Positions 6,818 through 52,650 of a stretch of 64,000 bases of DNA are shown one piece after another. The number at the start of each line of letters is the position of its first letter. Within the stretch, counting starts at the first letter, position 1. Source of the DNA: a virus. The notes beneath the pieces were generated by a model. The model ran no database searches and had not been told where the DNA came from. It saw nothing but the letters and a program-made list of their open reading frames with translations. The position numbers and the translations under genes are program-made. The stretch covers positions 1-64,000 of IMG/VR virus record IMGVR_UViG_3300045988_118310, one strand, 5' to 3'.

Positions 6818-6924
6818 ACCTTTCCTTTCTGTTAAAAGCGGAATTCTATTAAAAATCGCCAAAAACTTATTGCGATACCTCGTTGATTAAATTTAACTGA
6901 AATCAGGATTGTTTTCATCCCCTG

Positions 6925-9265: not shown

Positions 9266-11467
9266 TTAATTGTCGCTCAAATGAACCACTCGATCTCGAA
9301 TTTCCTGAGTGCGCCCCTGATTCCAAAAATTGGTTCCCAGGTAACCACAAGTACGTCTTACGACATTCATTTTGTTCTGGTCACGATTACCACAATTCGG
9401 GCACTCCCATATAAGCTTGTGGTTTTTCTCATCTTCTACAATTTTAATTTCGCCGTCGTAGCCGCAGCACTGGCAGTAGTCGGACTTGGTGTTCAGCTCC
9501 GCATACATGATGTTGTCGTAAATGAACTGCATAACACTAAGCACCGCAGGAATGTTCTGCTGCAGATTTGGCACCTCGATATAGCTAATCGCCCCTCCTG
9601 GAGAAAGCTTCTGGAACTCGCTCTCAAACTTTAGCTTAGTGAAAGCATCGATATGTTCACGGACAACGACATGATAAGAATTTGTTACGTAGTCATGGTC
9701 AGTAATATCTGGAATCATACCAAACCGCTTCTGCAAGCAACGTGCAAATTCATATGTAGTGGACTCCAAAGGAGTACCATACAGAGAGTAATCGATGTTT
9801 TCAGCGGCCTTCCACTCGTTACACTTATCATTCATGTGCCGCATAATTTCGAGAGCAAAAGGTTTAGCATCAGGATCGGTGTGGCTCTTGCCGGTCATAT
9901 ACTTCACACACTCATACAGACCGGCATAACCCAGGCTGATGGTGGAGTAGCCGCCGAAGAGCAACTTGTCGATCTTCTCGCCCTTCTTTAGACGAGCTAA
10001 TGCACCGTACTGCCACAGGATAGGGGCCATATCAGAAGAAGTGCCGAGTAGACGCTTGTGACGAATCTGTAGAGCTCGATGACACAATTCGAGTCGTTCA
10101 TCGAAGATTTTCCAGAATTTATCCTTGTCCCCTTCTGAACTGCAAGCCACGTCCACCAGATTGATGGTCACGACGCCCTGATTGAAGCGGCCATAATACT
10201 TATGCCCCTTAACCCAATTCTTGGCACTAGCTACGTTCTCAGTGGTGCGGTCAGGAGTAAGGAAGGATCTACAGCCCATGCTAGGCCACACACCGCCTTT
10301 AAGCTCCTTCATAACCTTTGCGGAAATATAATCAGGAACCATTCGCTTGGCAGTACACTTAGCTGCCAGCTCAGTCAGGTAATAATACTTAGAATCAGAA
10401 TGAATGTTATCCTCATCAAGAGCATAAATGAGCTTTGGGAAGGCCGGAGTGACCCATACACCAACTTCATTCTTTACACCCTGAATGCGCTGTTTTAACA
10501 CTTCTTCAACAATTAGAGCCAAATCATCACGAGTTTGACCTTCTGGAACTTCATCGAGGTACATAAACACGGTGATAAAAGGGGCCTGGCCGTTTGTCGT
10601 CATCAAAGTGACAACCTGATACTGGATGGTCTGCACGCCACGAGCAATTTCTTTATGTAAACGATCTTCTACAATTCGATTGATAGTTTCAGACTCCGGC
10701 ATCTTATCGATTTCATTATTCTGAACCATCTCGTAAAATTCTTGGTGTACTTCACTTGTGATCTTCTTGCGGGAAACATCTACGAATGGAGCCAGATGTG
10801 AAAGTGTAATACTCTGACCTCCAAATTGCATCGAAGCTACCTGTGCAATGATCTGGGTGGCAATGTTGCAGGCGGTGGAAAAGCTGTGAGGTTTTTCAAT
10901 ATAGGTGCCGGAGATGACGGTGCCGTTCTGGAGCATATCTTCAAGATTGACCAGATCGCAATTATGGCAGTGCATCACAAAATAATCTTTATCATGCACA
11001 TGAATTAAACCACTTTTGTGTGCATCTCGGATATCCTTTGGAAGTAGAAGTCTGTCAGTTAGTTCCTTAGATACCTCTCCGGCCATGTAATCACGTTGCG
11101 TGCTATTGATGGTTGCGTTCTTATTACTGTTTTCCTGATTGATTGCGTCGTTCTGGGCATCAAGAATTTCAAGAATACTTGCGTTGGTTTTCTCTTTATC
11201 TCGAATTTCCTGACGATACTGCCGCCACTGACTATATGCATTTGCAACGTCAATAAACGGGCTATTTGCTAGACTGTCCACTACGATATCCTGAATCTGC
11301 TCAACAGAAAGAATGCCCGGCATGTCTGCGATATAGTCAGCAATCGCATTCGACACACGAGCGTCGATACTACCCGGTGTACAGGTCATCGCCTTCTCGA
11401 CTGCATTCACAATCTTACTTTTATCAAAAGGGACTTCCGTTCCATCGCGTTTAATCACATATTCCAT
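9266..11467 (-). CDS. nrdD: anaerobic ribonucleoside-triphosphate reductase (class III)
   Basis: 733 aa, ATP-cone-like N-terminus, C-terminal glycyl-radical motif RRTCGYLG and Zn-ribbon CCGYDG...CPNCG. Confidence 0.85.
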   Translation of the reverse strand: MEYVIKRDGTEVPFDKSKIVNAVEKAMTCTPGSIDARVSNAIADYIADMPGILSVEQIQDIVVDSLANSPFIDVANAYSQWRQYRQEIRDKEKTNASILEILDAQNDAINQENSNKNATINSTQRDYMAGEVSKELTDRLLLPKDIRDAHKSGLIHVHDKDYFVMHCHNCDLVNLEDMLQNGTVISGTYIEKPHSFSTACNIATQIIAQVASMQFGGQSITLSHLAPFVDVSRKKITSEVHQEFYEMVQNNEIDKMPESETINRIVEDRLHKEIARGVQTIQYQVVTLMTTNGQAPFITVFMYLDEVPEGQTRDDLALIVEEVLKQRIQGVKNEVGVWVTPAFPKLIYALDEDNIHSDSKYYYLTELAAKCTAKRMVPDYISAKVMKELKGGVWPSMGCRSFLTPDRTTENVASAKNWVKGHKYYGRFNQGVVTINLVDVACSSEGDKDKFWKIFDERLELCHRALQIRHKRLLGTSSDMAPILWQYGALARLKKGEKIDKLLFGGYSTISLGYAGLYECVKYMTGKSHTDPDAKPFALEIMRHMNDKCNEWKAAENIDYSLYGTPLESTTYEFARCLQKRFGMIPDITDHDYVTNSYHVVVREHIDAFTKLKFESEFQKLSPGGAISYIEVPNLQQNIPAVLSVMQFIYDNIMYAELNTKSDYCQCCGYDGEIKIVEDEKNHKLIWECPNCGNRDQNKMNVVRRTCGYLGTNFWNQGRTQEIRDRVVHLSDN

Positions 11468-11478
11468 GTAATCACCTC

Positions 11479-13002
11479 TTACTCAGCATCCTGCGCATCG
11501 TTCTTTTCAGAAACAATCGTCGAATCGCTTACAAGGTTCACATTCTTAGTGACCTTTGCATCGTAACTGTTGGCACGGACAATTTCCTTCATATCAATGC
11601 CAGTTGCTTCACGAACGGCCTCAAAAGTCTGAGCCATGACTGCTGGGACATTGCCGGAAATCTCAGAAACACCATTTGCGTTACTGCCAATGATGGAAAC
11701 CTTGTCAATGGACGCCAGCGGCTTTGCAACCTCAGCTGCAATGCTAGGAAGAATCTTAATGATCATTTCACCCATAGCCGCACCATTGTACTGCTTGTAA
11801 GCTTCGGCCTTCTTCAGCATAGCTTCTGCTTCAGCAAGACCCTTCTGCCTGATGGCCTCAGCTTCCGCCATGCCAACCATACGGATGCCTTCTGCCTCCT
11901 GTTCCTTAGCGAACTTTGCGGATTCTGCAGAACGCTCTGCTTCGTACTTCTTTGCTTCAGCTTCCTTCTGACGCTTATACAGGTCGGCGTCTGCCTGCTT
12001 GCGAATCTCCGCATCCAGCTTTTGCTGACGAACTTCTGCTTCCTGAGCGGCCAACTCAACCATCTTCTTCTGCTTTGCAATAGCTGCGTCAGCTTCAGCT
12101 TCCTTAATTTCCTTATCACGCAGATTCATTTGAATCTCACCAGCAGCTTCTGCATCAGCATTTGCCTTATCAGCCTCCGCCTTCAGAGCGGCCTGAGTCA
12201 GAAGATACTCATTGTTGCGCTGTGCAATAGCGGTCTTGGATTCAATTTCCTTTTCATTTGATTCACGAGCAGTATCCGCCTTAGCACGAGCAATATCACG
12301 AGCGGCTTCGGCCTTAGCAATCTCTGCCTGTTTCTTCACCAGCTCTTCCTGCTGAACACCAATTGCCTCAATGACACCATGATTATGACCCTGAGCATCA
12401 ATAGCATCCTTAATATCCTGAACATTGAAAGTAACAACTTCCAGACCCATCTTTGCTAAATCAGGACGAGCATTCTCAACAACGGAAATTGCCATCTGTT
12501 TACGATTGGTCAGGATATCATTGACAGTCATCTCAGAAACAATCTCTCGCAGATTGCCCTGAAGGACATCGTTGATCTTTTCGTTAATGCCATCTTCACT
12601 CATGCCAAGGAAGTTGGAAATAGCAGCCTGCTGACGAGCACTAATATAAGTCTTTGCATCCTCACAACCGGCACTCTTAATCTCATCATCAGTTACAGTA
12701 GAGTTCTCAGAGTAAACCTGAACAGTAACAACAGAGTCCAGCCACAGAGAAACACCCTCTTTAGTCTTTACACCGGTTTCAGGAGTCTTGACATCAATCT
12801 TGAGCAATCGCATATTCAGACGGTCAGCTCGCTGAATAACCGGAAGGACGAACACGCCACGACCACAGATAACTTTCGGCTTAGACAGTCCAAAACCTGT
12901 TACGACGATTGCCTGAGTAGGAGGAGCCTTCTTATAGCAAGTAAATGCAAAGGCGATCAGAAAGACAACAACGACAGGAATTGCAATAAACATCATATTC
13001 AT
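11479..13002 (-). CDS. flotillin-like SPFH/band-7 protein
   Basis: N-terminal TM segment, SPFH core (AIVVTGFG...VLPVIQRADRLNMRL) and long Ala/Glu/Lys-rich coiled-coil, as in YqiK/FloT. Confidence 0.75.
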   Translation of the reverse strand: MNMMFIAIPVVVVFLIAFAFTCYKKAPPTQAIVVTGFGLSKPKVICGRGVFVLPVIQRADRLNMRLLKIDVKTPETGVKTKEGVSLWLDSVVTVQVYSENSTVTDDEIKSAGCEDAKTYISARQQAAISNFLGMSEDGINEKINDVLQGNLREIVSEMTVNDILTNRKQMAISVVENARPDLAKMGLEVVTFNVQDIKDAIDAQGHNHGVIEAIGVQQEELVKKQAEIAKAEAARDIARAKADTARESNEKEIESKTAIAQRNNEYLLTQAALKAEADKANADAEAAGEIQMNLRDKEIKEAEADAAIAKQKKMVELAAQEAEVRQQKLDAEIRKQADADLYKRQKEAEAKKYEAERSAESAKFAKEQEAEGIRMVGMAEAEAIRQKGLAEAEAMLKKAEAYKQYNGAAMGEMIIKILPSIAAEVAKPLASIDKVSIIGSNANGVSEISGNVPAVMAQTFEAVREATGIDMKEIVRANSYDAKVTKNVNLVSDSTIVSEKNDAQDAE

Positions 13003-16879: not shown

Positions 16880-18193
16880 TTAGGCATAAGACACCTCGTT
16901 CTTGTCATCTCTAAATCTTACAAAGGTCGGGAATTGCAGGGACTCAGCGCCAGTTTTCTTGTCACAGCTGACCTCTTTGTATTTACACTCAACAATCTTG
17001 CCAATGTAGTCATCAGGATTCGCCCACACAGTAGCTCTCGTAGCGTCATCAAAGCCAGAGCCAATGCGTAGCTCATTACCCTTGTAGTCCACAACGAGAG
17101 CTCCCGTCGTGCCAGCCAGACGGTTCTGACCTTCCTCAATCGCGATGATTCGCAGGTCAACAGTATAAAAACGTTTTACTTTCAGGCATCCATTATGTCG
17201 TGCCCGGCGGTAAGGGACATCTCTGTTACAGACAAGTCCTTCCCAGTCATTTGCAAGAGCGTAATCAAGCCATTTAGCAATCTGTGAATAGTCGGTTCCT
17301 TCGTAGACCATCTCGACAACTTCAATGTTTTGAAGATTGTGCTGCTTGATTTTCTCTTTCAGCTCAAGAAGCCGCTGTTTACGAACTGAATACCGTTCAA
17401 CACATTCGTCATTTTCAAACTGTCTCTGTAGAACCATATCGAAAATTACGAACTTGATGCAGCTCTTATCTGTAGAATCGCTGTTAATAATGCCTGTCCC
17501 AACAACGAAATTTTTGTTATCTGACAGACCATCGACATTCTTACGAATTAACTCTCCATCAAATACATAACCAAAATAGCCAGTATTTTTAATATCGTTG
17601 ATAATGTGGTCAAGTCCAGTAAACTTTTGCGCCTGTCTGGAAATGAACTGACCATTGATAAAGGTGCCGCGCACTCCATTTAATTTGCGCGATACAAAAA
17701 TCATTTCATCCCGCTTCAGTTTAACCTTGTCAATCGGATATCCCTGCTGTACCTCCCAGACAGGAACAATCTCTTCGCCGTACACCTTATTGATGGTAGC
17801 TGCCTCGACTCCGATCGGCAGGTTCTTAGTGAACAGTCGTTTCAGAAACTCTTCGTATTCAGGATTTTTATGTAAATAATTCTGGATTGTTGCGATGGAT
17901 GTATCAGAGCCTGTATTGTGACTAGCACCCATAATATAAAGGTATCCGCAGCTGAGATACTGAACATCGAAATCCGGCCTTGCGGTTACCTTCTTATTGA
18001 TCTTTGCATTAGACAGGCCAGTAACAATTGCCGGGTCAAGCAGGAATCGGAAGAATGCCATTAACTCATCAGCTTCATCTCCAAAATCCTTACGTGCATC
18101 CAGCAAAATGCGGGTCTTGTCCGTCTTTTTCTTTGCTTTCTGCAATGCCTTAACCATCGCATCAAGCTTACCTATGAGCTCTTTATCTGTCAT
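16880..18193 (-). CDS. ATP-dependent DNA ligase
   Basis: motif I KLNGVR, III FDGELI, IV EGLVC, V LKVKR, VI ESLQFPTFVRFRDDK. Confidence 0.75.
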   Translation of the reverse strand: MTDKELIGKLDAMVKALQKAKKKTDKTRILLDARKDFGDEADELMAFFRFLLDPAIVTGLSNAKINKKVTARPDFDVQYLSCGYLYIMGASHNTGSDTSIATIQNYLHKNPEYEEFLKRLFTKNLPIGVEAATINKVYGEEIVPVWEVQQGYPIDKVKLKRDEMIFVSRKLNGVRGTFINGQFISRQAQKFTGLDHIINDIKNTGYFGYVFDGELIRKNVDGLSDNKNFVVGTGIINSDSTDKSCIKFVIFDMVLQRQFENDECVERYSVRKQRLLELKEKIKQHNLQNIEVVEMVYEGTDYSQIAKWLDYALANDWEGLVCNRDVPYRRARHNGCLKVKRFYTVDLRIIAIEEGQNRLAGTTGALVVDYKGNELRIGSGFDDATRATVWANPDDYIGKIVECKYKEVSCDKKTGAESLQFPTFVRFRDDKNEVSYA

Positions 18194-35733: not shown

Positions 35734-36159
35734 TTATGAGATTTTCTTATCAAGTTTTCGTAACTCTAACTTACTGGGAAGAAAATTTCTACAGAAGTAT
35801 GCACTTCCAAAAGACACTCCCTCGACAGGGCTGTCTGCGTGTTTAGGGTCCATGAATCCTATTCGAGAATCAAAACACAGCATCTGTACATCATTTTTGA
35901 AGATGTCAAATCGTGTCTTACCCTGAATACTATTTGCAGGAAGTAGTAGAGCAAACGGCTTTTTAAGCTCATAGGCTCTACGCAATACTTCATCCTTCCT
36001 ACTAAAAGGAGGGTTTGAAATCATAATATCCCAATATTCCGGTTCGTATGTAAAGAAATCTTGTCCGTTATCAATGTGGCTATATTCTACTTTATATCCA
36101 GCATTTCTGAACACCTGCACAAAGGCAGACCACTCTTTATCAAACGGACACCAAATCAC
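35734..36159 (-). pseudogene. N-terminally truncated amino-methyltransferase-like fragment (NPPF motif IV)
   Basis: DIMISNPPF but no upstream FxGxG within the ORF; GTG start; G6 homopolymer just upstream. Confidence 0.4.
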
Positions 36160-36276
36160 TGTTTTACTCGACGGGGGGCAAATTCAAGCAATGGAATAAC
36201 CGCGTAAACCGGTGTGTATCGCTCATCGCCTACCGCAGATCGGTCAGCTGTTAAATATCCTTTATTTTCTGGCAAA

Positions 36277-37731
36277 TTATCCTCCTTGCTTTTCTGGAAA
36301 ATGCTTCTTAGTTACTGCAACGCAGAACGGTTCAATTTCAGATCCCCAGATAGCAGTACCATCACCATACGTACTTTCAAAGACAAGCGGAAAGCCACCG
36401 ATTCCATCAAAAAGACTGCCAAGCGTAGGATTCTCACCGATATACGGCTTCATTTTCTGGAAAATCCAATACCACTGAGGCAATGCAATCGAATTGCCGA
36501 GCGCCTTGTAACGAGGAGAATCAGCTGGTTTGTGCTTTTTACCATTCTCATCAACCCACTCGCCAATATCAGTCCATCCATCAGGGAACCCTTGAAGTCG
36601 TTCACACTCGACAGGAGTCAGGCGACGAACAATCCATTGCAGATTCTTCGTTTCCTTCTCTGCAATCAAGTCAGTAGCATCCTTGTAGTCACGAGATTTC
36701 ATCGTACTAGCTTGTTCACTTTCCTTGTATTCACCAATGCGTTGCATTGCAAAGGTTTTCTTTTCAGCAACAAGCGGCATATTATTGCCACCAGTCCCCC
36801 ATTGAGCCGTACAAGCCGGACTTGTGTCGCCCTGTTGAGTGTATCGAGCATCCTGACTGTGACTCTCAAACACCACCGGCGAAATCTTTTGTTTTGAATT
36901 ATGTAAAGAGGTGTTGTCTGCCAAGCAAATTAACGTTTGATCTTGCAATGTAGAAAGCGTTGCGCTCTTCTCGATTTGTACCAGTGCGCCTTTGCCACCA
37001 CCTTCGCATCCTGAACGAATCTTTAAAGTGTAGGCAACAGCATTACGGTCAATAGTGTTTATAGTGAAAGCAGTATCTTCTTTTACACCAGTCCCATTCA
37101 TGTTGGTTTCTCTGTCAATCATGTTTCCGACGATACAAAAGCTTTTTTCTCCCACCACTCGATCATTTCCAACAATGCATTTTTCAGCAATTCTGGCAGC
37201 ACCTTGCCACGTCGGGATGCTCTCGTCAGAATTCCCTGGCACGCCCGTGCGCTCAAATAATATCTTTGCGGCACGTTGTCCTCCAAAATCCATGACAAGC
37301 GCGATTCTTTGACGACGTTGGGGCACTCCCCAGTATTGAGCATCGAAGAGTCTCCATGCCAAAGACCATCCATTACCGGAAATTGCGCCGGATTTAGACC
37401 ATTTTCCACCTTTTTCCGAAGGTTTAGGAATTGTAGCGTCTGCTTCGACGATGTGTGCAAATTCTTCCAAGACACATCGGAAGTCTTCTCCGTTGTTTGA
37501 GGAGAGTGCTCCTCTAACATTTTCCCAGATTGCAAATTTTGGATATTCTCCATTGGTGGTATCCCTCATTTCTTTTATCACACGAATCATTTCCATAAAT
37601 AGACCAGACCGTTCTCCAGCCAAACCTGCCCGCTTACCGGCAATAGAAAGATCTTGGCTAACAAGGTGAACCACCAGTGATACACGAGACAGGTTCAATC
37701 TTAGAACCATCAATCTCGCAAATACTTCCAT
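36277..37731 (-). CDS. DNA cytosine-5 methyltransferase, circularly permuted (motifs V-X followed by I-II), catalytic Cys encoded out of frame upstream
   Basis: ENV, QRRQR, RLTPVECERLQGFPDGW, GNSIALP then LFDGIGG and SEIEP...HFPE at the C-terminus; N-terminus reads ...LVSQDLSIAG lacking PC. Confidence 0.65.
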   Translation of the reverse strand: MEVFARLMVLRLNLSRVSLVVHLVSQDLSIAGKRAGLAGERSGLFMEMIRVIKEMRDTTNGEYPKFAIWENVRGALSSNNGEDFRCVLEEFAHIVEADATIPKPSEKGGKWSKSGAISGNGWSLAWRLFDAQYWGVPQRRQRIALVMDFGGQRAAKILFERTGVPGNSDESIPTWQGAARIAEKCIVGNDRVVGEKSFCIVGNMIDRETNMNGTGVKEDTAFTINTIDRNAVAYTLKIRSGCEGGGKGALVQIEKSATLSTLQDQTLICLADNTSLHNSKQKISPVVFESHSQDARYTQQGDTSPACTAQWGTGGNNMPLVAEKKTFAMQRIGEYKESEQASTMKSRDYKDATDLIAEKETKNLQWIVRRLTPVECERLQGFPDGWTDIGEWVDENGKKHKPADSPRYKALGNSIALPQWYWIFQKMKPYIGENPTLGSLFDGIGGFPLVFESTYGDGTAIWGSEIEPFCVAVTKKHFPEKQGG

Positions 37732-37882: not shown

Positions 37883-37963
37883 TGGTGGGACATGTCGGAC
37901 TTGAACCGTGATACATATGCTCAGTTATGAGCTGAGTTCTCTAACCAATTGAGATAATGTCCC
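37883..37963 (-). tRNA. tRNA-Met/Ile2-like (anticodon CAT), CCA encoded; T-stem imperfect
   Basis: acceptor GGGACAT/ATGTCCC, D-stem TCTC/GAGA, anticodon stem CTCAG/CTGAG loop CTCATAA; GGTTCAAGTCC T-arm. Confidence 0.55.
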
Positions 37964-38094
37964 ATAAAAACCAGTTAAATAGCTGCAACTATTCAACTGG
38001 GCACCTTCCTTATAAAACGCTATTGCATCTATATCATATAGACGAGGAAGGAATAACAGCGATGCACATTTCCTATATCTCGCCCCTTTCGGGG

Positions 38095-38152
38095 TGGTAT
38101 CTCGCACAGGCGCGGCCAGATCTGACCGCCAAAGATCCTACCCATACGAGAT
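38095..38152 (-). ncRNA. 57-nt tRNA-minihelix-like element ending in CCA, directly after tRNA-Gly
   Basis: TCTCGTA/TGCGAGA terminal pairing, internal AGATCT palindromes, ends ...TACCA followed by a CCCCGAAAGGGG hairpin. Confidence 0.3.
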
Positions 38153-38227
38153 TGGAGCAGCGAAAGGTAGTCGAAACCTCATCCTCAGCTTGGAAGGCTG
38201 ATGTACTAGCCGTTGTACGACCGCCGC
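38153..38227 (-). tRNA. tRNA-Gly (anticodon TCC), CCA encoded
   Basis: cloverleaf: acceptor GCGGCGG/TCGCTGC (2 GU), D-stem GTAC/GTAC, anticodon loop CTTCCAA, T-arm GAGGT-TTCGACT-ACCTT. Confidence 0.7.
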
Positions 38228-38233
38228 ATGAAA

Positions 38234-38284
38234 ACCCAGCTTACAAAACACTACTGCACCATCACTGGCGAGCTGGGAATAATA
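38234..38284 (-). repeat. R1: conserved ~50-nt inverted-repeat spacer element (CCCAGCT...AGCTGGGAATAAT) upstream of tRNA-Gly
   Basis: shares acccagcttac...cactgc...gagctgggaataat with R2. Confidence 0.4.
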
Positions 38285-38328
38285 GTGGTCAAAGGAGTTC
38301 AACCATGAACAACAACGATTCATGACCG

Positions 38329-38410
38329 TGGTGCGGATAGTGGGCATCGAACCCACACGCCGAAGCACCAGATCCTAAATCTGGCGTGTCTGCCATTCCA
38401 CCATATCCGC
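38329..38410 (-). tRNA. tRNA-Leu (anticodon TAG), long variable arm, CCA encoded
   Basis: acceptor GCGGATA/TATCCGC, anticodon loop TTTAGGA, variable arm TGCTTCGGCGTG, T-arm GTGGG-TTCGATG-CCCAC. Confidence 0.75.
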
Positions 38411-38415
38411 ATAAA

Positions 38416-38486
38416 TTGCGCCAACAGGGGTCGAACCTGTGATGGAGGAGTCAAAGTCCTCTGCCTTACCGCTTGGCGATGGCGCA
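38416..38486 (-). tRNA. tRNA-Gln (anticodon TTG), no encoded CCA
   Basis: acceptor TGCGCCA/TGGCGCA (U1-A72 as in bacterial tRNA-Gln), anticodon stem GAGGA/TCCTC loop CTTTGAC, T-arm ACAGG-TTCGACC-CCTGT. Confidence 0.7.
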
Positions 38487-38495
38487 TCATATACC

Positions 38496-38549
38496 CAGCT
38501 TACTACGCCACACTGCTCCGTTTCCAGAGAGCTGGGAATAATGTGAATG
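38496..38549 (-). repeat. R2: second copy of the inverted-repeat spacer element, upstream of tRNA-Gln
   Basis: tacccagcttac...cactgctcc...gagctgggaataat. Confidence 0.4.
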
Positions 38550-38571
38550 AAAAATTCTACATGCCCTTTCG

Positions 38572-38647
38572 GGCTGGTCCGAGTGACAGGTCATGATCCT
38601 GCGGCCTCATGTTCCCAAAACACGCGCTCTTCCAACTGAGCTACACC
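38572..38647 (-). tRNA. tRNA-Pro (anticodon TGG), CCA encoded, atypical T-loop
   Basis: acceptor CCGGGTG/CACTCGG, D-arm GCTC-AGTTGGAA-GAGC, anticodon loop TTTGGGA, T-loop ATCATGA. Confidence 0.55.
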
Positions 38648-38654
38648 CGGATAT

Positions 38655-38741
38655 AAATGCCACCGAGGAGAGTTGAACTCCTAATCTCTTACGAGCGTTC
38701 CGGTTTAAGCGGAAAGTGTATGCCATTTCCACCACGGTGGC
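38655..38741 (-). tRNA. tRNA-Leu (anticodon TAA), long variable arm, no encoded CCA
   Basis: acceptor GCCACCG/CGGTGGC, anticodon stem TTCCG/CGGAA loop CTTAAAC, T-arm AGGAG-TTCAACT-CTCCT. Confidence 0.7.
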
Positions 38742-38821
38742 ACATCAACACTGTCTGTCCAGCAGTCAACCGTCTTTCCGATTTTGCCAATATTCTAGCA
38801 CTTGCCCATCTGCAAATGGGT

Positions 38822-38900
38822 TGGTAGCCCTACTCAGATTTGAACTGAGAATTTTACAAGGTTTGAGCTTGTTGCGTATGCCTAATTCCGCCATAGGGCC
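38822..38900 (-). tRNA. tRNA of uncertain identity (anticodon CAA, short variable arm, large D-loop), CCA encoded
   Basis: acceptor GGCCCTA/TAGGGCT, anticodon stem ACAAG/CTTGT loop CTCAAAC, T-arm CTCAG-TTCAAAT-CTGAG. Confidence 0.5.
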
Positions 38901-38967: not shown

Positions 38968-41178
38968 TTATTCGTGCCGATTCTCATAGAATTCATTCCG
39001 AAGCTGAATGATGTTCTTTTTGCAGAACGATTCGTGATCGGCATCATTCTGTTGTCTCATCCATCCGTAGAAGTTGTTGTCTTCTGCGGTGAACAATTTT
39101 GAGGTGTGTTCGTAGTATCCACGCTTTTGAACGCTCTGCATAACACTACGCAAGAATTTCCAGTGCTTATAGCAAGGAAGCTTCAGCTTAAACATGAAAT
39201 TGTTGTTATCTCTCAAAACAAAGCCTTCAACGTGTTTAAAGCCATGATGCAGATAGTTCTCGTTCATGACTTCCTCGTACCAAGGATAGAATTCACGCCA
39301 GTTCTCAAAGGTCTTAACCTTCTCCTTAATCTGCAGATGACACTTCTCGGCTACACGCTTCAAATCATCATAATCCATTACACTGAAATTCATATCATTT
39401 GCAATAATATCCAGCAAAACAACGTGCGGTTTCTTATATTCGATGATATGCGCATCATTCACAGGATCAATCACCTCGAAGATGATGGAGCCATTCTCTT
39501 TTGCAAATTCTTTCAGATTCTTACGGTCTTCATCAGAAGTCGTATCCATGAGAATCTTTCGAAACATATCTGCAAAAGGCCCTTCAGGAGTGGATTTACT
39601 TGCAATGAACAGACTATCCTGTTCTGCATCATACGAAATGATACCAAGAAATCCGTTCTCTTTTAGATATGCAGTCACCGGGAACTTCAAAGTGTTCTGT
39701 AGGTTTCCAATTCTCGTTTCATTCCGCTCATCAACCGCAAAGAACTTATCATAGCTTCGAGCTACAATCTTATTCGTCTTTGTGTTAATGAACAATCCCC
39801 TTGCTTTGGTAGAAACCTCATCCCAGTGCTTCTTATAAAATGCTTCACGAGAGAAGTTGAAAGAAGAAATATCTCCGAATCGCTTCTCAAACACATATTT
39901 GCTTTGACGCATCTTACTAACAAGTTCTGCGTTATCGAACTCAGTTTTCAGTTCAACGACAGTTTCAGTCTTTGGCTCCTCTTTTTGGAACACATCGTTC
40001 TTGGTTTCTACACACTTGATTGACTGACCGTGTTCAAGTTCCACGCAACGAAGATATCCACCAAACTCGATTTTTCCTTCGAGGTTGTAGCACTGATGCC
40101 CCATATCAATAGGAACATCCTGCACATTTCGATGTCCAAAGATTTGGAAACATCCGTCAGGCATCTTTTGTTCCCATGACTCTGCGACAGTGAGCATGTC
40201 AGAGTAGCGGCCAACACCCTTTACCATCTGGTCAGTAGACACGAACGGTAGAAATTCAGGCAAATAACTCAAACCACCATGGCTAACGAAGTATCTTTTA
40301 TCATCGTAATCAAAATAGGAGCACTGTCCTACTCTTGAATAGACCTTACGAGCCGTATTATGGTCAATCCCTGCTTTAAAAAGCTGCGGACGAGTGTAGT
40401 TTGTAAATTCCTCACTCTGAACCGGCTCGTCATGACCCCACTTGTTTAGCCACCGTTCATGATTTCCTTCAAGGAGAATTACATTCTTCCGATTATTGTC
40501 TACAACATCACAAAGGAACTTGAACATCTCTACATTTTCAATTCCACGATCCAGATAATCGCCAACAAAAATGTACAGCTCATCGTCCTTCAGGTCTCCA
40601 AGGTACTCTTTCAGGCAACTGTAGCATCCATGCACATCACCGATGATATGAATTTTGCTCCAATTATTAAAATCCTGCGGAACATAGTTCAATTTTTCAA
40701 GGACATTGACATCCGACGAAAGCACAGTCACTCCAGACGGAATTTTTTGTGTTGCGAATCGTGCATACATCTTATCAATGACAGCATCTGGAACTCTCTT
40801 CAGTGGGGCACGGAGCGAATTGCGCCGCTTGCACTCATCAATCGGCAAGCCCGTCATGTCAATGATGTACATTCTGTACCTGTACTGCTTGGCGAGGTTC
40901 TTGTAGCGATTGATTTCGACCGTTTTAGAATTCGTTGCATCGATCACGGTGAACTCACCATGAGACATCCGAACCTCCAACAGCTTAAAGAGCATATCCC
41001 AGACAACATCATCGTTCTGGGGAGAGATTTCCATTGTGCCAGCCGGGGTTTCCTGACCACCCTGGCACATAAGACGAATCGTATCTGCACTAAGCGTATA
41101 CTTTTCCAGATCATGCTCTTTAATATAGGGGGACTTCCCGCATCCGGGTGCTCCACGGAAAAGAAGCAAAGTTCTCAT
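38968..41178 (-). CDS. Pnkp-like polynucleotide kinase - metallophosphatase - ligase (RNA repair enzyme)
   Basis: P-loop GAPGCGKS + VIDATN (kinase); GDVHG, GDYLDRG, GNHE (calcineurin-like phosphatase); KENG, FEVID, EGFVL, FKLK (nucleotidyltransferase ligase motifs I, III, IV, V). Confidence 0.75.
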   Translation of the reverse strand: MRTLLLFRGAPGCGKSPYIKEHDLEKYTLSADTIRLMCQGGQETPAGTMEISPQNDDVVWDMLFKLLEVRMSHGEFTVIDATNSKTVEINRYKNLAKQYRYRMYIIDMTGLPIDECKRRNSLRAPLKRVPDAVIDKMYARFATQKIPSGVTVLSSDVNVLEKLNYVPQDFNNWSKIHIIGDVHGCYSCLKEYLGDLKDDELYIFVGDYLDRGIENVEMFKFLCDVVDNNRKNVILLEGNHERWLNKWGHDEPVQSEEFTNYTRPQLFKAGIDHNTARKVYSRVGQCSYFDYDDKRYFVSHGGLSYLPEFLPFVSTDQMVKGVGRYSDMLTVAESWEQKMPDGCFQIFGHRNVQDVPIDMGHQCYNLEGKIEFGGYLRCVELEHGQSIKCVETKNDVFQKEEPKTETVVELKTEFDNAELVSKMRQSKYVFEKRFGDISSFNFSREAFYKKHWDEVSTKARGLFINTKTNKIVARSYDKFFAVDERNETRIGNLQNTLKFPVTAYLKENGFLGIISYDAEQDSLFIASKSTPEGPFADMFRKILMDTTSDEDRKNLKEFAKENGSIIFEVIDPVNDAHIIEYKKPHVVLLDIIANDMNFSVMDYDDLKRVAEKCHLQIKEKVKTFENWREFYPWYEEVMNENYLHHGFKHVEGFVLRDNNNFMFKLKLPCYKHWKFLRSVMQSVQKRGYYEHTSKLFTAEDNNFYGWMRQQNDADHESFCKKNIIQLRNEFYENRHE

Positions 41179-41246
41179 CGTTTTTCTCCCTTTATTTAAC
41201 GTATTATCGTCATTTATTTGTTGTCAAATCACGATAAAATGTCTAT

Positions 41247-41630
41247 TTAATTCAACTCTTCCAGCTTCTTCATTAGCTGGTCAACGTCCATATCTTCAAG
41301 TTCCTTGTCCTTCTTCTTTGCAACGATCTTCATAATCTTATCACGTTGCGCCTTCTTCTCTGCGGCGTCCACACGTGCCTCGTACTCGGCCAGCCTGACA
41401 GAAACGATGTATTTGACTAGCTCAATCTTATTTTCCAGTTCTGTATTTTCGGCGCTCTTAACAGCCAGCAAAGAATCTTCATCTGCGGTTTTCTTTTGAC
41501 GGTTCAGAGTCTTAAAAATCGCATCCAGTGCCTCGACGCTCAGAGCCCACAGATCTTCAACAGTCATAACACCCTTATAGTTGAAGCGATAGCGATTACG
41601 GGTTGCAATTTCAAACAGATTCTTTTCCAT
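41247..41630 (-). CDS. hypothetical coiled-coil protein
   Basis: 127 aa, Lys/Glu-rich C-terminal half. Confidence 0.4.
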   Translation of the reverse strand: MEKNLFEIATRNRYRFNYKGVMTVEDLWALSVEALDAIFKTLNRQKKTADEDSLLAVKSAENTELENKIELVKYIVSVRLAEYEARVDAAEKKAQRDKIMKIVAKKKDKELEDMDVDQLMKKLEELN

Positions 41631-41644
41631 AATTATTTCTCCTT

Positions 41645-43711
41645 TCAGATAACCACTTTCAAAATTCGCTCAGTAGCTCCCTGCACCTTAACAATAAAGG
41701 AATCCTGCTTCGTTTCAGAGAATCCAACGCCGGACAGCTGATCATTTACCGACTGAACTGCCATCTGAGAACCCAGCGCCTCAAATACTCGCTTATGCTG
41801 TAGCAATTCCGCCTTCAGGAATTCGTTGTAAAATCCGTTCGGCTTTTCGGGGTTGACGCAATCCTTGAGCATGAAGAAGTAGTGACGATTGCCATTGCCG
41901 GTCTGTTCGTCCCAGTAGTTCGGAGAGTACATCGCCACAGACACAGGTACGAACTGGTTGGAACTCACACCCCAAATTTCACGGGTGCTGGTAGAACTGG
42001 GAAGCAGTTCCTTGATAGAGAATTTGCCATCCTTCAGAGTGACCTTTGCCACAGCTACATTCTGACCACCATGCAGCGGCTTATCGTAGTTAAACGAGTA
42101 GATGTTGCCATCGAATTCGATTTCAGCACGGAAACCGGTTTTGCCGCCGCGACTAGCGAAGCAGTTTACATAGAAGCTGTACTCGCCTTCCTTCATCTTT
42201 TTGATGTCAGGCCAGGTGATATTCTCGACCGCGGCCTTATAGCGAATGGGACGCATAATATCTACGTCCAGGCGGCCATCAGTACGAGGGTGCCACTTGC
42301 TGCCGAAATAGATGTGATTCTTATCGGGTTCAATGCAATGAGCATCCTCATCATTTTCATCCCACTCGCCCGGCTTATCGTTCCACTGAATAGAGAAACG
42401 CAGCACGCCATCGACTTTGCCGCCAGCATTCTTGACGTTCTCCCGAATCTGGCTGTCAGTCATGTTGCCGGTATATGCCCAACTGAAACCATTAGGCCAC
42501 TTGAACATAGACGGCGCAGCCTTATCCTGCAGAGCAATCAGAGACATCATATTCTTCTCGAAACGATTCTCCATAAACAGCTCTAGGCCCGTTGCAGTCG
42601 GCAGCACGTCTCTGATGAACTTGTCGATGCCGATTTCCTCCGCGCGACCGAACTTCTTAGGATCGGTGCCCATAGATTTTGCCATTGCCTCGAACGGGTT
42701 CATTGCCCCCATTACACGAGGAGCGGCATCGCGGTTGCAGAACAGAATATTGTTGGCAGTAATATCATCCAGAGTGGCAAATCGGCGACCCAGACTGTTC
42801 ATGTAACCCAACTCAGTAACGGTTTTCTGTGCATCTTCCAGCATCTTCTTAGTGAAAATAGCTTTGGGACGCTTGTAATTGGCAGGAGCGACAACCTTCT
42901 CAAAGGCGGTAACGGCGGAATCCACATCCATGCCTTCGCTCAAATTGATAAGAAGGGTGCCGATAGCGGTGTTACGAATACGAAGCCGGTTCATCGACGC
43001 ACCGCCGGGAGCCATCCAAACATAAGCGGACTTCTTTTCATCAGGCAGACGATCATACACTCGCTTATCGATTTTGAAGCCACGAACCAGAGATTCAAAC
43101 TCCTTGCCGCGATACAGGCTGTTCTGCGCAATCAGCTCAAGTACGGTGTCCACGGCATCCATGGTCAGCTCCTCCAGAGAACGCTTGAACACATTAGCAG
43201 AATCACGCCACTCGGCCATCTTGGTAGTCACATCGCAGGAATTGACAATGAACCGCTGAGGAATCTCGACAGCGAAATGATCCCAGGTGTGAACCGCCTT
43301 ATGATCAGCATCGTACTCATAGTTTACCTCCGTGCCGAACTTGCCATCGGAGATCATATTGCGGCTAACATAATACGGATTCACAACAGCACAGGTTTTC
43401 ACATAAGTAGCCAGCGCATCCACAACCGGCTGATAAACGTCGGACTTGGTATCGAAATCCCAGACGGTAACCATCTGACCATCCATAAAGGAAACCAGCT
43501 TACCAATGTTCTTTACGAAACGACGGCAGTAGGAGCAATCATACTTACGCCGCTTACGGAAGATGGAGTTCGTGCCAGCCGGGAAGCTGTCCAGATAGAG
43601 GTCATATAGCTTATCCTCATCTGCATTGGTGATAAACAGAGGTGCGCCATCCTTCACCATCTCATTGAAGTGATCCTGCAGTAGTGCACGAAATTTCTTG
43701 AAATCAGACAT
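41645..43711 (-). CDS. large hypothetical protein (688 aa)
   Basis: no confident family; CSYCRRF pair and an isolated GGKVDGVLRF (KxDG-like) segment; preceded by the ACAGGATAC motif. Confidence 0.5.
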   Translation of the reverse strand: MSDFKKFRALLQDHFNEMVKDGAPLFITNADEDKLYDLYLDSFPAGTNSIFRKRRKYDCSYCRRFVKNIGKLVSFMDGQMVTVWDFDTKSDVYQPVVDALATYVKTCAVVNPYYVSRNMISDGKFGTEVNYEYDADHKAVHTWDHFAVEIPQRFIVNSCDVTTKMAEWRDSANVFKRSLEELTMDAVDTVLELIAQNSLYRGKEFESLVRGFKIDKRVYDRLPDEKKSAYVWMAPGGASMNRLRIRNTAIGTLLINLSEGMDVDSAVTAFEKVVAPANYKRPKAIFTKKMLEDAQKTVTELGYMNSLGRRFATLDDITANNILFCNRDAAPRVMGAMNPFEAMAKSMGTDPKKFGRAEEIGIDKFIRDVLPTATGLELFMENRFEKNMMSLIALQDKAAPSMFKWPNGFSWAYTGNMTDSQIRENVKNAGGKVDGVLRFSIQWNDKPGEWDENDEDAHCIEPDKNHIYFGSKWHPRTDGRLDVDIMRPIRYKAAVENITWPDIKKMKEGEYSFYVNCFASRGGKTGFRAEIEFDGNIYSFNYDKPLHGGQNVAVAKVTLKDGKFSIKELLPSSTSTREIWGVSSNQFVPVSVAMYSPNYWDEQTGNGNRHYFFMLKDCVNPEKPNGFYNEFLKAELLQHKRVFEALGSQMAVQSVNDQLSGVGFSETKQDSFIVKVQGATERILKVVI

Positions 43712-43797: not shown

Positions 43798-44724
43798 TTA
43801 ATTTTTATGGAAATATTCGACCCAACCTTTGTATCCTTGTCTGAAGCTAATGTAGGCAACCTTGCTACACTTTCTTCCGATAATGTCTGCAAGAGGGTCT
43901 TTACCATTTCCGAAACTAAGTTCTGCAAGATTAAATTCTGGATTATTCTTACAGTAGTCGTAGACCTTCACGTATTCGCCGTTTCTGGTTAGATGCCTTC
44001 GATCTAAAGCCTTTGAGTGATATCTTTTTTCGAGGATGTTATTCAACCGCATAAAATAGGTATGAATTGTATGCACAGACATCTTTGGGTCACTGTCTGC
44101 ACCGATACTATCCTCGGTTTTACGAATGATGTAATCACCATTCATGACATAGAATGCCCTATACCCTCCCTTATTGGGAGCGTCATACTGTTTCATTTCA
44201 TAACACTGCTTAATAATATCCATCAACTTTGCATCAACACCTGTCTTATCAAGAACAGTACAAGATTCAAAATCGACATCGTTAATCGTCAGGTTAGAAA
44301 CTTCTTCAGAAGTAAGGCCAATCCAGTACAGTGCAGCAATCACGTTCATACGAATCTGATATGGCTCTTCATACTTATTTAAGAAGTCAACAAACTCATC
44401 AACTGATGCAAAGTATTTATCCGCATACATATTGTCTGCGCTTACATCGCTCTCTGAAAAGTCAGCCAGATCATACATGCTTGTTTTGTTTTCGCTTTTG
44501 ATGTAGCCTGTGATTATTGACTTCACATTTTTAAACGAACGACTCGAGTTCACCCAATTATATTTGGCAAACATCTTTACGAAATCATCTTTTGTGAAGT
44601 CAAACAACTCATACCCACGCTCAGCCTCGTAACCCAGAACATGGTTAAGCGTCGATACAACAAACTCACCGCTTCTATCAGAATACTTTTCAGCAAAAGC
44701 TTTGATCTTTTCTTCAGTAAGCAT
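43798..44724 (-). CDS. divergent tyrosine-recombinase-like protein
   Basis: box-I-like RMNVIAALYWIGLTSEEVSNLTINDVDF; C-terminal region with His/Arg/Tyr but non-canonical spacing. Confidence 0.35.
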   Translation of the reverse strand: MLTEEKIKAFAEKYSDRSGEFVVSTLNHVLGYEAERGYELFDFTKDDFVKMFAKYNWVNSSRSFKNVKSIITGYIKSENKTSMYDLADFSESDVSADNMYADKYFASVDEFVDFLNKYEEPYQIRMNVIAALYWIGLTSEEVSNLTINDVDFESCTVLDKTGVDAKLMDIIKQCYEMKQYDAPNKGGYRAFYVMNGDYIIRKTEDSIGADSDPKMSVHTIHTYFMRLNNILEKRYHSKALDRRHLTRNGEYVKVYDYCKNNPEFNLAELSFGNGKDPLADIIGRKCSKVAYISFRQGYKGWVEYFHKN

Positions 44725-44777: not shown

Positions 44778-45197
44778 TCAAGCAAATGCGGCAAAATTTT
44801 GAAATTCCATGGTATGTTGTACGCCGCTCAGGAATGCTGCGAGTAAAAACGGTTCATCCTTGCATCTTGCCATTGCGATCATATTCATATGACGCTCAGA
44901 CAAGACACCAAGCTTTTTGATGAACTGTCCTTTGTTAAGTGTATCAGTCTCTTCACAAAGAACAATACTATCAACCTCTAGGAAATCGCAGTCTTCTTTC
45001 GAGAGTAGAACATGAACCGGAGAACGCTTGTATATTCTGGAAGACAACGGATTCCCTTTGATTGTGGGACTGAAGAAGTTGCGCTTGTTGTTGCTTGTCA
45101 CAACGAACGGTCGAATACCGCGCTGCTGATGACCTGTTGCATTGGACAAATCGACCAACCAAACCTCTCCGACCTTTGGGTCAATATTGTTGTCCAT
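44778..45197 (-). CDS. MazF/PemK-family endoribonuclease-like protein with ~30-aa C-terminal extension
   Basis: GEVWLVDLSNATGHQQRGIRPFVVTSNN and downstream conserved core. Confidence 0.6.
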   Translation of the reverse strand: MDNNIDPKVGEVWLVDLSNATGHQQRGIRPFVVTSNNKRNFFSPTIKGNPLSSRIYKRSPVHVLLSKEDCDFLEVDSIVLCEETDTLNKGQFIKKLGVLSERHMNMIAMARCKDEPFLLAAFLSGVQHTMEFQNFAAFA

Positions 45198-45288: not shown

Positions 45289-45633
45289 TTAGTGCCCGTA
45301 CAACTCGGGATTCTCTGATACGAACACGCTTGTGTTATCGAATATCATCTCATACGCTTTCTCTTTATCGCCCGGTCTAAGCTCAATCCTCCTTGCTTCG
45401 TGGCATTCTTGCCGCAGCTCAATATGACTTTCGTTTCCGAAGAAGCCAATGCCTTTAACGATCCCATGTGTCTCTGTTCCAACATCGTTCATTTTGTTAC
45501 AGACCATGTGAACATCTACACCATTGCAAACAAAACAAACCCACACTCTCTTTTTTCTTATGTACTTTAAAAAGTCATCAACTCGTATGACCTTCAGAAC
45601 CTTTCTCTCACGCATTAAAACACCGCCCTCCAC
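45289..45633 (-). CDS. hypothetical protein
   Basis: 114-aa ORF. Confidence 0.3.
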   Translation of the reverse strand: MEGGVLMRERKVLKVIRVDDFLKYIRKKRVWVCFVCNGVDVHMVCNKMNDVGTETHGIVKGIGFFGNESHIELRQECHEARRIELRPGDKEKAYEMIFDNTSVFVSENPELYGH

Positions 45634-51810: not shown

Positions 51811-52650
51811 TCAGTCTTCCAAGCTGTGTGTATTCACACCATAAAAAGTCTTCTTATAATATTCTTTTGCCTTATCCTCATCAAAACCAACGTACCGTAA
51901 TGTAATATCCTGACTACTATGATTCAACTGACCCTGAATCCAAGACAATGCCTGGTTATCATCCTTATTAAGACACATCTCACGATAACCAAATGTCTTA
52001 CGGCAAGAATGAGATGCAATCTTATAATTAAGACCCAAATCTTTGCCAGCGTTACGAAGAATACGAGCAAAAGAATCAACATCAATAGGATCACCGGCCT
52101 TTTTGGGTTCTGCAATATGAGGAATACCAGTTTTCCCATCTCCACCATTTGTCCTCAACGACTTTTTCCAGCTCCCCTGCCGAGACGGAAACATCCAATC
52201 GTCATATCCAAGTTTCGCAATCTTAATATATGTTTCAACAATATCCCTCGCTTCTGGAGTAAGGATGATTTCTCGATACTTGGACGTTTTTTCTTCAACG
52301 ATACACACTCCAGCGTCTTCAACCACTTCAATTTTTCCATTATAAAGGCAATAAGACATATCGGAAACTTTCAATTTGAGTAAATCACTAGCACGTAACC
52401 CGGTTGCGATACCTACGTTAAATAGACACCAATTGCGATATTGCTTTTTATCCCAGAAGTATTCCGAAATCATTTGAACATCATCCAAGCTTCTAATTGG
52501 AGAAATATTACGCTTACGCTTCTGCTTACTTCTTGTAACACCACGTTTTTTAGCCGGAACAGAAGGTTTCGGATTAAAATAAATCAATTTAGGTATCTGT
52601 TCTTCTTTTCTTTCAACAACTGCGCTCATTATATTCACCTCAAACTCCAT
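51811..52650 (-). CDS. small tyrosine recombinase (Xer/phage-integrase family)
   Basis: box I GLRASDLLKLKVSDM, box II HSCRKTF...LNHSSQDITLRY. Confidence 0.7.
   Translation of the reverse strand: MEFEVNIMSAVVERKEEQIPKLIYFNPKPSVPAKKRGVTRSKQKRKRNISPIRSLDDVQMISEYFWDKKQYRNWCLFNVGIATGLRASDLLKLKVSDMSYCLYNGKIEVVEDAGVCIVEEKTSKYREIILTPEARDIVETYIKIAKLGYDDWMFPSRQGSWKKSLRTNGGDGKTGIPHIAEPKKAGDPIDVDSFARILRNAGKDLGLNYKIASHSCRKTFGYREMCLNKDDNQALSWIQGQLNHSSQDITLRYVGFDEDKAKEYYKKTFYGVNTHSLED

Follow-up and report, generated by a model that had tools for sequence, protein, structure and literature searches.

A predicted single-polypeptide RNA heal-and-seal enzyme in a temperate phage of gut Clostridia

RNA-cleaving immunity, which includes anticodon nucleases, PARIS, retron effectors, Cas13 and toxin RNases, is now seen as widespread. 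Anticodon nucleases, toxin RNases and CRISPR-associated collateral RNases leave RNA ends with a 2',3'-cyclic phosphate and a 5'-OH. To our knowledge, repair as the phage's answer is well studied only in the two-enzyme system of T4, where a kinase and 3'-phosphatase (Pnkp) and an Rnl1-superfamily ligase (Rnl1) are separate proteins and the phosphatase is a DxDxT acylphosphatase. In bacterial Pnkp the ligase module is of the Rnl4 type and is completed by the N-domain of Hen1, and the system includes Hen1 together with a 2'-O-methylation step. Fungal and plant Trl1 carries three healing and sealing activities on one polypeptide in the order LIG-KIN-CPD, and heals 3' ends with a 2H cyclic phosphodiesterase. 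As far as we know, the Rnl6 clade has been described from fungi, plants and kinetoplastids only.

We analyzed a window of 64,000 nt of viral DNA, the whole stretch available to us, in which one minus-strand gene encodes a 736-aa protein. This protein is likely, in our judgment, to be a self-sufficient RNA 'heal-and-seal' enzyme, on a single polypeptide, that serves counter-defence in a temperate phage of ~130 kb infecting gut Clostridia; its host is probably a Faecalibacterium or a member of a related genus. The gene, its parts and two neighboring features are as follows.

38968..41178, minus strand: gene for the predicted trifunctional RNA repair protein, 736 aa, ATG start, stop codon at 38968-38970 (ORF list)
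41186..41190, minus strand: Shine-Dalgarno sequence GGGAG, 7 nt 5' of the ATG (sequence reading)
40684..41178, minus strand: polynucleotide 5'-kinase domain, aa 1-165
39979..40671, minus strand: binuclear metallophosphoesterase domain, aa 170-400
39940..39978, minus strand: disordered linker between the healing and sealing halves, aa 401-413 (pLDDT below 50)
39178..39939, minus strand: ligase adenylyltransferase domain, aa 414-667 (Pfam RNA_lig_T4_1; residue conservation; family profile against PDB)
38971..39177, minus strand: all-helical, Trl1/Rnl6-like ligase C-domain, aa 668-736
37883..38900, minus strand: seven tRNA genes, Leu-CAA, Leu-TAA, Pro-TGG, Gln-TTG, Leu-TAG, Gly-TCC and Met/Ile-CAT (ARAGORN)
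44778-45197: MazF/PemK-type endoribonuclease gene, 3.6 kb upstream of the ligase gene (Pfam PemK, E 3.8e-19; phrog_1936)

The first-pass annotation had read a kinase, a metallophosphatase and a ligase, in this order, in one protein; Pfam and residue conservation agree, and every motif it quoted (GAPGCGKS, VIDATN, GDVHG, GDYLDRG, GNHE, KENG, FEVID, EGFVL, FKLK) is found in the translation. Three Pfam matches lie far above chance: AAA_33 in the kinase region (aa 4-142, E 8.5e-19), Metallophos (aa 175-353, E 1e-15) and RNA_lig_T4_1 (aa 458-669, E 1.8e-40), the last of which makes the C-terminal third significantly similar to nucleotidyltransferases in the HMM search that the annotation had proposed. 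The AlphaFold2 model has a mean pLDDT of 89.1, and the linker is its only segment below 50.

The active sites are complete and conserved, and none of the catalytic residues varies across the family. The kinase displays the features of the Clostridium thermocellum Pnkp (CthPnkp) type: a P-loop (G9-S16, with K15), D80, lid arginines R119 and R123, and D32 and R35 as predicted general acid and phosphate ligand. The metallophosphoesterase has D181, H183, D207, R211, N239, H240, H300 and H349; of the nine residues essential in the CthPnkp phosphatase, the ninth (Asp392) has no mapped counterpart. In the ligase, the Rnl1-type N-subdomain (equivalents of Arg54, Lys75 and Phe) and motifs I, III, IV and V are all present, with R460, K478, K506-E-N-G (motif I), E568 (motif III), H577, E651-G-F-V (motif IV), and K664 and K666 (motif V). 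Its adenylyltransferase residues are kept in 148-150 of 150 diverse family representatives. The C-domain contains invariant Y670, W673, K674 and R677 and a terminal motif (I723, L726, R727, F730); across the same representatives, position 674 is K or R in 148 and R677 is found in 146, these two forming a KxxR on the first C-domain helix.

Bacterial Pnkp and the healing half are homologous, and the best solved-structure matches of the latter are the kinase and phosphatase domains of CthPnkp; to this extent, the initial identification as a bacterial Pnkp stands. The whole protein, however, is not a Pnkp, as its ligase is of another type. Against the NCBIfam Pnkp equivalog TIGR04075 it scores 71.7 bits for a cutoff of 750, short of a whole-protein match, in an alignment that covers aa 4-304 only, to model positions 10-324 of 851. 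No Pnkp-ligase Pfam family is found in the 736-aa protein at E up to 0.01. In a comparison of the family profile with PDB, the ligase half matches Trl1-LIG (1.4e-28) and T4 Rnl1 (1.8e-9). Pfam, the equivalog score and these ligase-half matches refute membership of the Pnkp family. By sequence, the predicted ligase falls in the Rnl1 superfamily, carries a C-domain of the Trl1/Rnl6 type and is not the Hen1-dependent Pnkp ligase.

Like Trl1, the phage protein would unite three healing and sealing activities on one polypeptide. In structure and in sequence, the phage ligase is closest to the Trl1 ligase domain, with which it shares the clade-defining C-domain, an equivalent of His227 (H577) and a basic i/i+3 pair in the first C-domain helix. 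The domain order, however, is permuted to KIN-phosphatase-LIG, and 3' healing is assigned to a metallophosphoesterase, Pfam detecting no 2H domain in the 736-aa protein. The T4 pair likewise provides a phage kinase, a 3'-phosphatase and an Rnl1-superfamily ligase, but as two proteins instead of one. By analogy with T4, undoing anticodon-nuclease damage would be the expected logic and a standard 3'-5' phosphodiester the probable product. The phage metallophosphoesterase is unlike the T4 acylphosphatase, and the C-terminal tRNA-specificity domain of T4 Rnl1 is missing from the phage protein: just 247 residues align.

The protein belongs to a large phage family, apparently without a characterised member, and differs from it in nothing essential. 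It matches phrog_8238 'RNA ligase' over its full length (E 1.7e-223; aa 1-733 against profile positions 1-732 of 737), and relatives with 37-51% identity have the same three domains in the same order, also at full length. Family members are found under PHROG 8238 and the NCBI name 'RNA ligase' in Twort-, Sep1- and K-like Staphylococcus phages and SPbeta-like Bacillus phages, as well as in Lactobacillus, Brochothrix, Fusobacterium and Streptomyces phages and in Lachnospiraceae and Oscillospiraceae prophages; they are variously annotated as RNA ligase, tRNA ligase, polynucleotide kinase, Ser/Thr phosphatase or hypothetical. The family also occurs in the genomes of at least 231 bacterial species, presumably as prophages. 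Given the temperate SPbeta-like phages and these bacterial genomes, the enzyme is not, as had been suggested, unusual in a temperate phage. An identical 736-aa protein lies on a 431-kb contig, and the 90%-identity cluster of the protein has 2003 member sequences. The searchable literature yielded neither a characterised member nor any account of an Rnl6 ligase from a phage or a bacterium, although the RNA repair catalogue of Burroughs and Aravind 2016 may already list the architecture.

What this clade adds to the PHROG 8238 family is a tRNA array directly downstream. The first tRNA starts 67 nt past the ligase stop codon on the same strand, each of the seven clears the Rfam tRNA model with 46-60 bits over its full length (1-71), and no terminator-like site lies between the ligase gene and the first six tRNAs; the array is probably co-transcribed with the gene. 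The adjacency described in the first-pass annotation thus holds at this locus and as a trait of the clade (79 of 80 close relatives), but not for the family: direct adjacency occurs in 0 of 80 divergent loci, which led us to reject it as a family trait. Of 52 divergent loci, 24 have tRNAs within 10 kb, and none was found near the family genes of the Bacillus and Staphylococcus phages checked. The array could merely supplement rare A-ending codons, with no functional tie to the enzyme. In the phage genes, which the count covered, the codons cognate to the seven tRNAs are again in the minority.

Two upstream proteins of 688 and 127 aa had been put forward as possible partners. We rejected both: just 7 of 80 close relatives have them, and an identical ligase occurs with and without them. 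The 688-aa protein is a DUF8224 protein; its homologues, present in 537 phage records (Ackermannviridae and others), are distributed without regard to the ligase family, and the usable ones are all at least 90% identical. Hen1 is absent from the window, as first reported: none was found among the 36 ORFs (of at least 127 aa) scanned with Pfam, and the only methyltransferases in the window are DNA methylases (36277-37731 and 35734-36159). Nor does any Pfam hit listed in the gene tables of the divergent relatives examined belong to the Hen1 family. Since the ligase is of the Rnl1/Rnl6 type and not Hen1-dependent, this absence is expected and unremarkable. The gene itself lies within a replication and nucleotide-metabolism arm encoding Pol III alpha, RecD2, RecJ, DNA ligase, ThyX and NrdD.

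From domain content and phage location we infer that the enzyme may reverse anticodon-nuclease damage during infection; counter-defence RNA repair, the function initially suggested, is the most plausible one. The P-loop kinase at the N-terminus would add a phosphate to the 5'-OH. [quoted passage not shown] Past the flexible linker, the C-terminal ATP-dependent ligase would become adenylylated at K506, pass the AMP on to the 5'-phosphate and close the break. The result would be, in effect, a fusion of T4 Pnkp and Rnl1 that combines a healing half of the bacterial Pnkp type with a ligase of the Trl1/Rnl6 type. Domains, active sites, fold and family distribution were observed here; the reactions of the enzyme, the kind of 3' end it leaves, its action on tRNA and its use against host defences are predictions from sequence. 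We also observe that the retained Trl1-like phosphate-site residues H577, K674 and R677 do not simply fit a 2'-OH/3'-OH pathway.

These residues bring us to a different chemistry, in which the phosphoesterase stops at 2'-PO4/3'-OH, the ligase needs the 2'-PO4, and the junction 2'-phosphate is removed by a host KptA/Tpt1. The proximity of the ligase half, with its clade-defining C-domain, to fungal Trl1-LIG speaks for it, as do H577, kept in 149 of 150 representatives, and the alignment, in the profile register, of the fungal 334-RxxR-337, which enforces 2'-PO4 specificity (PMC11404444; PMC6379707), with the nearly invariant K674 and R677. This register is ambiguous, however: in the single-sequence register Arg334 falls on K671, a variable position (N in 40, S in 27 and K in 25 of 150), and Arg337 on K674. 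Products with a 2'-phosphate are known for lambda phosphatase and CthPnkp-H189D (PMC2190708). Yet the phage phosphatase retains, as H183, the very His that lets CthPnkp remove the phosphate completely, down to 2'-OH (PMC1920235). Moreover, no KptA/Tpt1 is found in the window or in 171 family loci (3.07 Mb total), and the genus labels of KptA phages (Erwinia, Dickeya, Klebsiella, Clostridioides and others) overlap with those of family phages at Bacillus only. We therefore regard this alternative as rather unlikely. Similarly doubtful is the proposal that the ligase module is a true prokaryotic-virus member of Trl1/Rnl6 needing a 2'-phosphate end, as Trl1 does. If this were true, common phage and prophage enzymes would repair Firmicutes RNA by a 'eukaryotic' pathway that leaves 2'-phosphate junctions, a natural substrate for bacterial KptA/Tpt1 enzymes, and this would point to phages as an origin or a reservoir of the eukaryotic tRNA ligase domain.

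Other explanations change the purpose or the ancestry of the enzyme. [quoted passage not shown] In all 80 of the 80 close relatives the toxin gene stays in the same block, and relatives of ~50% identity again have it close to the ligase. However, the close loci are 87-94% identical, so that their synteny is not independent evidence; an iterative HMM search finds a PemK-like ORF within 8-10 kb in just 8 of 87 divergent loci, with one gene split, and in Staphylococcus and Bacillus phages the family does well without a MazF neighbor. We rejected MazF linkage as a family trait on these counts and consider a MazF-directed role very unlikely. Housekeeping, by processing of the adjacent tRNA transcripts or by clean-up of 5'-OH/3'-phosphate DNA or RNA ends in replication, would suit the replication module, the probable co-transcription of the array and the action of CthPnkp-type kinases on DNA ends too (PDB 4mde is a DNA complex). 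But none of the seven tRNAs has an intron or split structure, the phage already has a separate ATP-dependent DNA ligase (16880-18193), the ligase domain falls in RNA-specific clades and most of the family lacks adjacent tRNAs, which makes this role slightly more improbable still. Least credible of all is a bacterial-type Pnkp that lost Hen1 and repairs RNA without protective 2'-O-methylation: the domain order is shared and the kinase-phosphatase half is homologous, but the equivalog score covers the healing half only, Pnkp-ligase domains are missing, the Rnl1/Rnl6-type ligase belongs to a clade that seals without Hen1, and neither the window nor the Pfam hits listed for relatives bear a trace of a past Hen1 association.

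If the preferred reading, counter-defence repair, is correct, the family would put an entire repair pathway into one protein, with possible use as a one-step tool for ligation of RNAs with cyclic-phosphate ends. The family is very abundant among human-gut prophages and is also present in therapeutic-type Staphylococcus phages. A characterised member would tell whether Trl1-type ligase chemistry occurs outside eukaryotes, and would reveal which host defences are neutralised and whether prophages shield their hosts from tRNase toxins.

The repair gene, an ORF on the minus strand at 38968-41178, starts with ATG, encodes 736 aa and lies exactly where the first-pass annotation had placed it; a GGGAG ribosome-binding site is found 7 nt 5' of the ATG. 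All the motifs quoted in that annotation are present in the translation, and the domain order it claimed, kinase, metallophosphoesterase and ligase, is the one given by Pfam. Across an alignment of 26 family members (A1, 49-88% identity), every one of the expected catalytic residues is invariant. The domains, all encoded on the minus strand, are as follows.

aa 4-142: AAA_33 kinase (Pfam E 8.5e-19); invariant K15, D32, R35, D80, R119, R123
aa 175-353: calcineurin-like metallophosphoesterase (Pfam E 1e-15); invariant D181, H183, D207, D210, R211, N239, H240, H300, H349
aa 458-669: RNA_lig_T4_1 (Pfam E 1.8e-40); invariant R460, K478, K506 (motif I), E568 (III), E651-G-F-V (IV), K664 and K666 (V)

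The AlphaFold2 prediction based on A1 has high confidence (mean pLDDT 89.1), and its sole disordered stretch, aa 401-413, is the linker joining the healing half (kinase and phosphatase) to the sealing half (ligase).

The protein is not a Pnkp, the bacterial trifunctional repair enzyme that works with Hen1: it scores 71.7 bits against the NCBIfam Pnkp equivalog, whose cutoff is 750, only aa 4-304, in the healing half, are aligned, and no Pnkp-ligase Pfam domain was detected in it. The ligase half has about 323 residues, of which the adenylyltransferase domain takes up about 254; the 313-residue alignment with Trl1, the fungal and plant tRNA ligase, therefore includes the C-domain, whereas T4 Rnl1 shares the adenylyltransferase domain and leaves the C-domain outside the alignment. 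Foldseek on the model agrees with sequence searches on the identities of the modules. For sequence-level confirmation, we searched with a profile of the ligase half (A3), which matched Candida glabrata Trl1-LIG at E 1.4e-28 and Chaetomium LIG at E 3.8e-22. The latter alignment reaches residue 399 of 407 and covers the terminal IIxLRxxF motif, with invariant R727 paired with the essential Arg389; that with T4 Rnl1 (E 1.8e-9) ends at profile position 258. A 70-residue profile of the C-domain on its own is too weak and gave no matches. The Trl1 C-domain defines Rnl6, a clade named by Banerjee et al. (PMC6379707). Given the Foldseek, sequence and A3 matches, the protein is an evolutionary chimera, in which a healing half of bacterial Pnkp type is joined to an Rnl6-clade ligase.

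Rnl4, the ligase of Pnkp, depends on the N-domain of Hen1. Ligases of the Rnl1 and Rnl6 types do not need this domain (PMC6379707), as is also well established, and because the ligase here is of Rnl1/Rnl6 type, the absence of Hen1 is not that of a missing partner. No Hen1, Tpt1/KptA, 2H or RlaP protein was found among the 36 ORFs scanned in the window.

Kinship with Trl1 raises the question of whether the enzyme also follows Trl1 chemistry, in which a 2'-PO4 end is required. In Trl1 this requirement is enforced by His227, Arg334 and Arg337 (PMC11404444). Of 150 representatives, 149 keep H577, the residue that pairs with His227, and K674 (K or R in 148/150) and R677 (146/150) form an invariant KxxR in the first C-domain helix, which the profile alignment places on the fungal RxxR; a single-sequence alignment, however, moves the register by three residues and sets Arg334 on variable position 671. 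The phosphatase also retains His183, the equivalent of CthPnkp His189. In studies of CthPnkp, ends healed by the wild-type enzyme are sealed by T4 Rnl1 and not by yeast Trl1-LIG, and an H189D mutant leaves a 2'-PO4 (PMC1920235; PMC2190708). Nor is a KptA linked to the ligase: tBLASTn gave no KptA match either in the window or across 3.07 Mb of sequence from 171 related loci, and KptA-encoding phages overlap with phages carrying this ligase family only in the genus label Bacillus. We consider a Trl1-like pathway improbable; the retained His183 and the CthPnkp precedent favour a 2'-OH/3'-OH intermediate, although the 2'-PO4-type residues kept in the ligase speak against so simple a scheme. A KptA-like RNA 2'-phosphotransferase (45-46% identity to E. 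coli KptA) is encoded by two phages of Clostridioides difficile, CP011970.1 (phiCDIF1296T) and CP067347.1, whose records are about 131-133 kb long; neither is among the matches for the trifunctional family.

The family is already named in databases: PHROG 8238 ('RNA ligase') matches the protein end to end (E 1.7e-223). By tBLASTn it occurs in 140 phage records (113 matches are full-length), including 97 from Staphylococcus Twort, Sep1 and K-like phages, 18 from Lactobacillus and others from Streptomyces, Fusobacterium and Brochothrix phages; its annotation in these records is inconsistent. With a limit of E 1e-10, more than 4000 proteins in a set of 5.8 billion match the window protein, and the three-domain architecture recurs in nearly all of the 120 that were listed. 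For the ligase half alone, the number of representative clusters at or below E 1e-30 is 630, and 90 of the best 149 are 690-800 aa long with the ligase at the C-terminus. The exact window protein is found on 53 contigs (the longest of 431 kb), its 90% cluster has 2003 members, and in IMG/VR there are at least 80 relatives (87-94% identical), whose contigs measure 125-139 kb.

The window is the replication arm of a phage of this kind. It encodes FolD, NrdD, ThyX, DNA ligase, RecD2, Pol III alpha, RecJ and a primase-like protein, together with two tyrosine recombinases.

455-1612 (-): Tn916-type integrase with DNA-binding domain, near the window start
51811-52650 (-): 279-aa Phage_integrase protein, the second tyrosine recombinase

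A 507-aa SPFH/Band-7 flotillin-like protein (11479-13002, minus strand), whose gene is flanked by that of the anaerobic ribonucleotide reductase and by the ThyX region, is unusual cargo in a phage replication module. The family is carried by the temperate SPbeta-like Bacillus phages L2, L3, L8, Goe11 and Goe12 (tBLASTn) and by at least 231 GTDB species genomes, mostly Lachnospiraceae and Oscillospiraceae. From this distribution and the integrase-bearing content of the window, we conclude that the element is temperate and that temperate phages commonly carry the enzyme, which had been proposed to be unusual in them.

Seven tRNA genes (37883-38900, minus strand), all passing the Rfam tRNA model, follow on the same strand, the first beginning 67 nt past the stop codon, so that the gene does lie directly upstream of a 7-tRNA array. 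Between it and the first six tRNAs there is no terminator-like site; a terminator-like hairpin (38000-37971) lies in a 190-nt gap at 37964-38152. The array directly follows the ligase in 79 of the 80 close relatives (87-94% identical), with a constant core (Leu-CAA, Leu-TAA, Pro, Gln, Leu-TAG, Gly) and a distal end that varies among near-identical phages (extra Gly-TCC, 'His-ATG', 'Ile-TAT' or 'Tyr-ATA'). The last window tRNA, called Met-CAT (81 nt), may be an AUA-reading tRNA-Ile2, since an Ile-TAT tRNA with similar acceptor and D-arm occupies its slot in four relatives. Of the seven anticodons, five read codons that end in A, as would make sense for a 41%-GC phage in a host of higher GC; the tRNAs may thus do no more than help to decode rare codons. 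Beyond the array, the slot at 35734-37731 (-) is filled by DNA methyltransferases that differ between relatives; divergent relatives have Dam, D12 and N4/N6 methylases there.

36277-37731 (-): C5 methylase
35734-36159 (-): 141-aa ORF, aligned to just the middle of longer N6-adenine methylase profiles

The conserved block of close relatives runs p208, p114, MazF, p308, ligase, tRNAs, variable DNA methylases and p366. Upstream of the ligase, the window has the following.

41247-43711 (-): optional two-gene cassette directly upstream of the ligase, 688-aa DUF8224 protein (phrog_1735) and 127-aa phrog_2018 protein
43798-44724 (-): p308, 308-aa tyrosine-recombinase-like protein (weak MrpR N-/C-domain matches; phrog_5830 'integrase', E 3.8e-11)
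44778-45197 (-): PemK/MazF-like endoribonuclease toxin gene (Pfam E 3.8e-19; phrog_1936 'MazF-like growth inhibitor')
45289-45633 (-): 114-aa ORF before the toxin gene, no family match

The two cassette proteins, once suggested as repair partners, can be dismissed as such: they occur in 7 of the 80 close relatives, and an identical ligase is found with and without them. The 688-aa gene has 49% GC against about 41-44% in its neighbours. There are 537 phage records with DUF8224 homologues, none with an assigned function; they include Ackermannviridae, Bacillus BCP78 and Caulobacter CcrSwift, and their host range is unrelated to that of the ligase family. A 92% homologue in Faecalibacterium prausnitzii genomes suggests Faecalibacterium as a possible host. 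The p308 gene, between the MazF gene and the ligase, is present in 80/80 close relatives and is followed by a terminator-like hairpin (43794-43775). No p308 homologue was detected by tBLASTn in divergent loci; in L084-L086, relatives at about 50% identity, the gene after PemK encodes a protein of similar size. The 114-aa ORF could be the antitoxin of the PemK/MazF-like toxin, whose gene is split in a Flintibacter prophage. At L083, a relative at 55% identity, a Macro-domain gene (6878-7312) lies two genes upstream of the trifunctional ligase and an RLIG1-like (PF17720) gene (10630-11226) two genes downstream of it, in what looks like a denser RNA-repair cluster.

By analogy with T4, a precedent for phage RNA repair as counter-defence (PMC3400036), and with comparative-genomic surveys of phage RNA repair (PMC7824862; PMC9503650), we infer that the enzyme would counter RNA-cleaving host systems; it may equally well protect the lysogen against tRNase toxins. 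A tie to the phage's own MazF is less likely: the toxin gene, 3.6 kb upstream, is kept in 80/80 close relatives, but of 87 divergent loci only 8 have a PemK/MazF-like ORF close to the ligase. A housekeeping role is likewise less likely. Of 80 divergent loci (45-51% identity), none has a tRNA immediately after the ligase, 24 of the 52 with enough flank have tRNAs within 10 kb, and two have a Leu-Pro-Gln-Leu run upstream. Linkage to tRNAs and to MazF is thus a trait of particular lineages.

The literature searched, whose coverage stops short of the catalogue likeliest to list this architecture, yielded neither a characterised family member nor any account of an Rnl6-type ligase from phages or bacteria. 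The original framing, as a Pnkp lacking Hen1 and out of place in a temperate phage, cannot be upheld. The gene is genuine and belongs, as an ordinary case, to a large uncharacterised family whose kind, phage RNA heal-and-seal repair, is already known; the point worth keeping is its ligase module, which is Trl1-like and conserves a candidate phosphate site.
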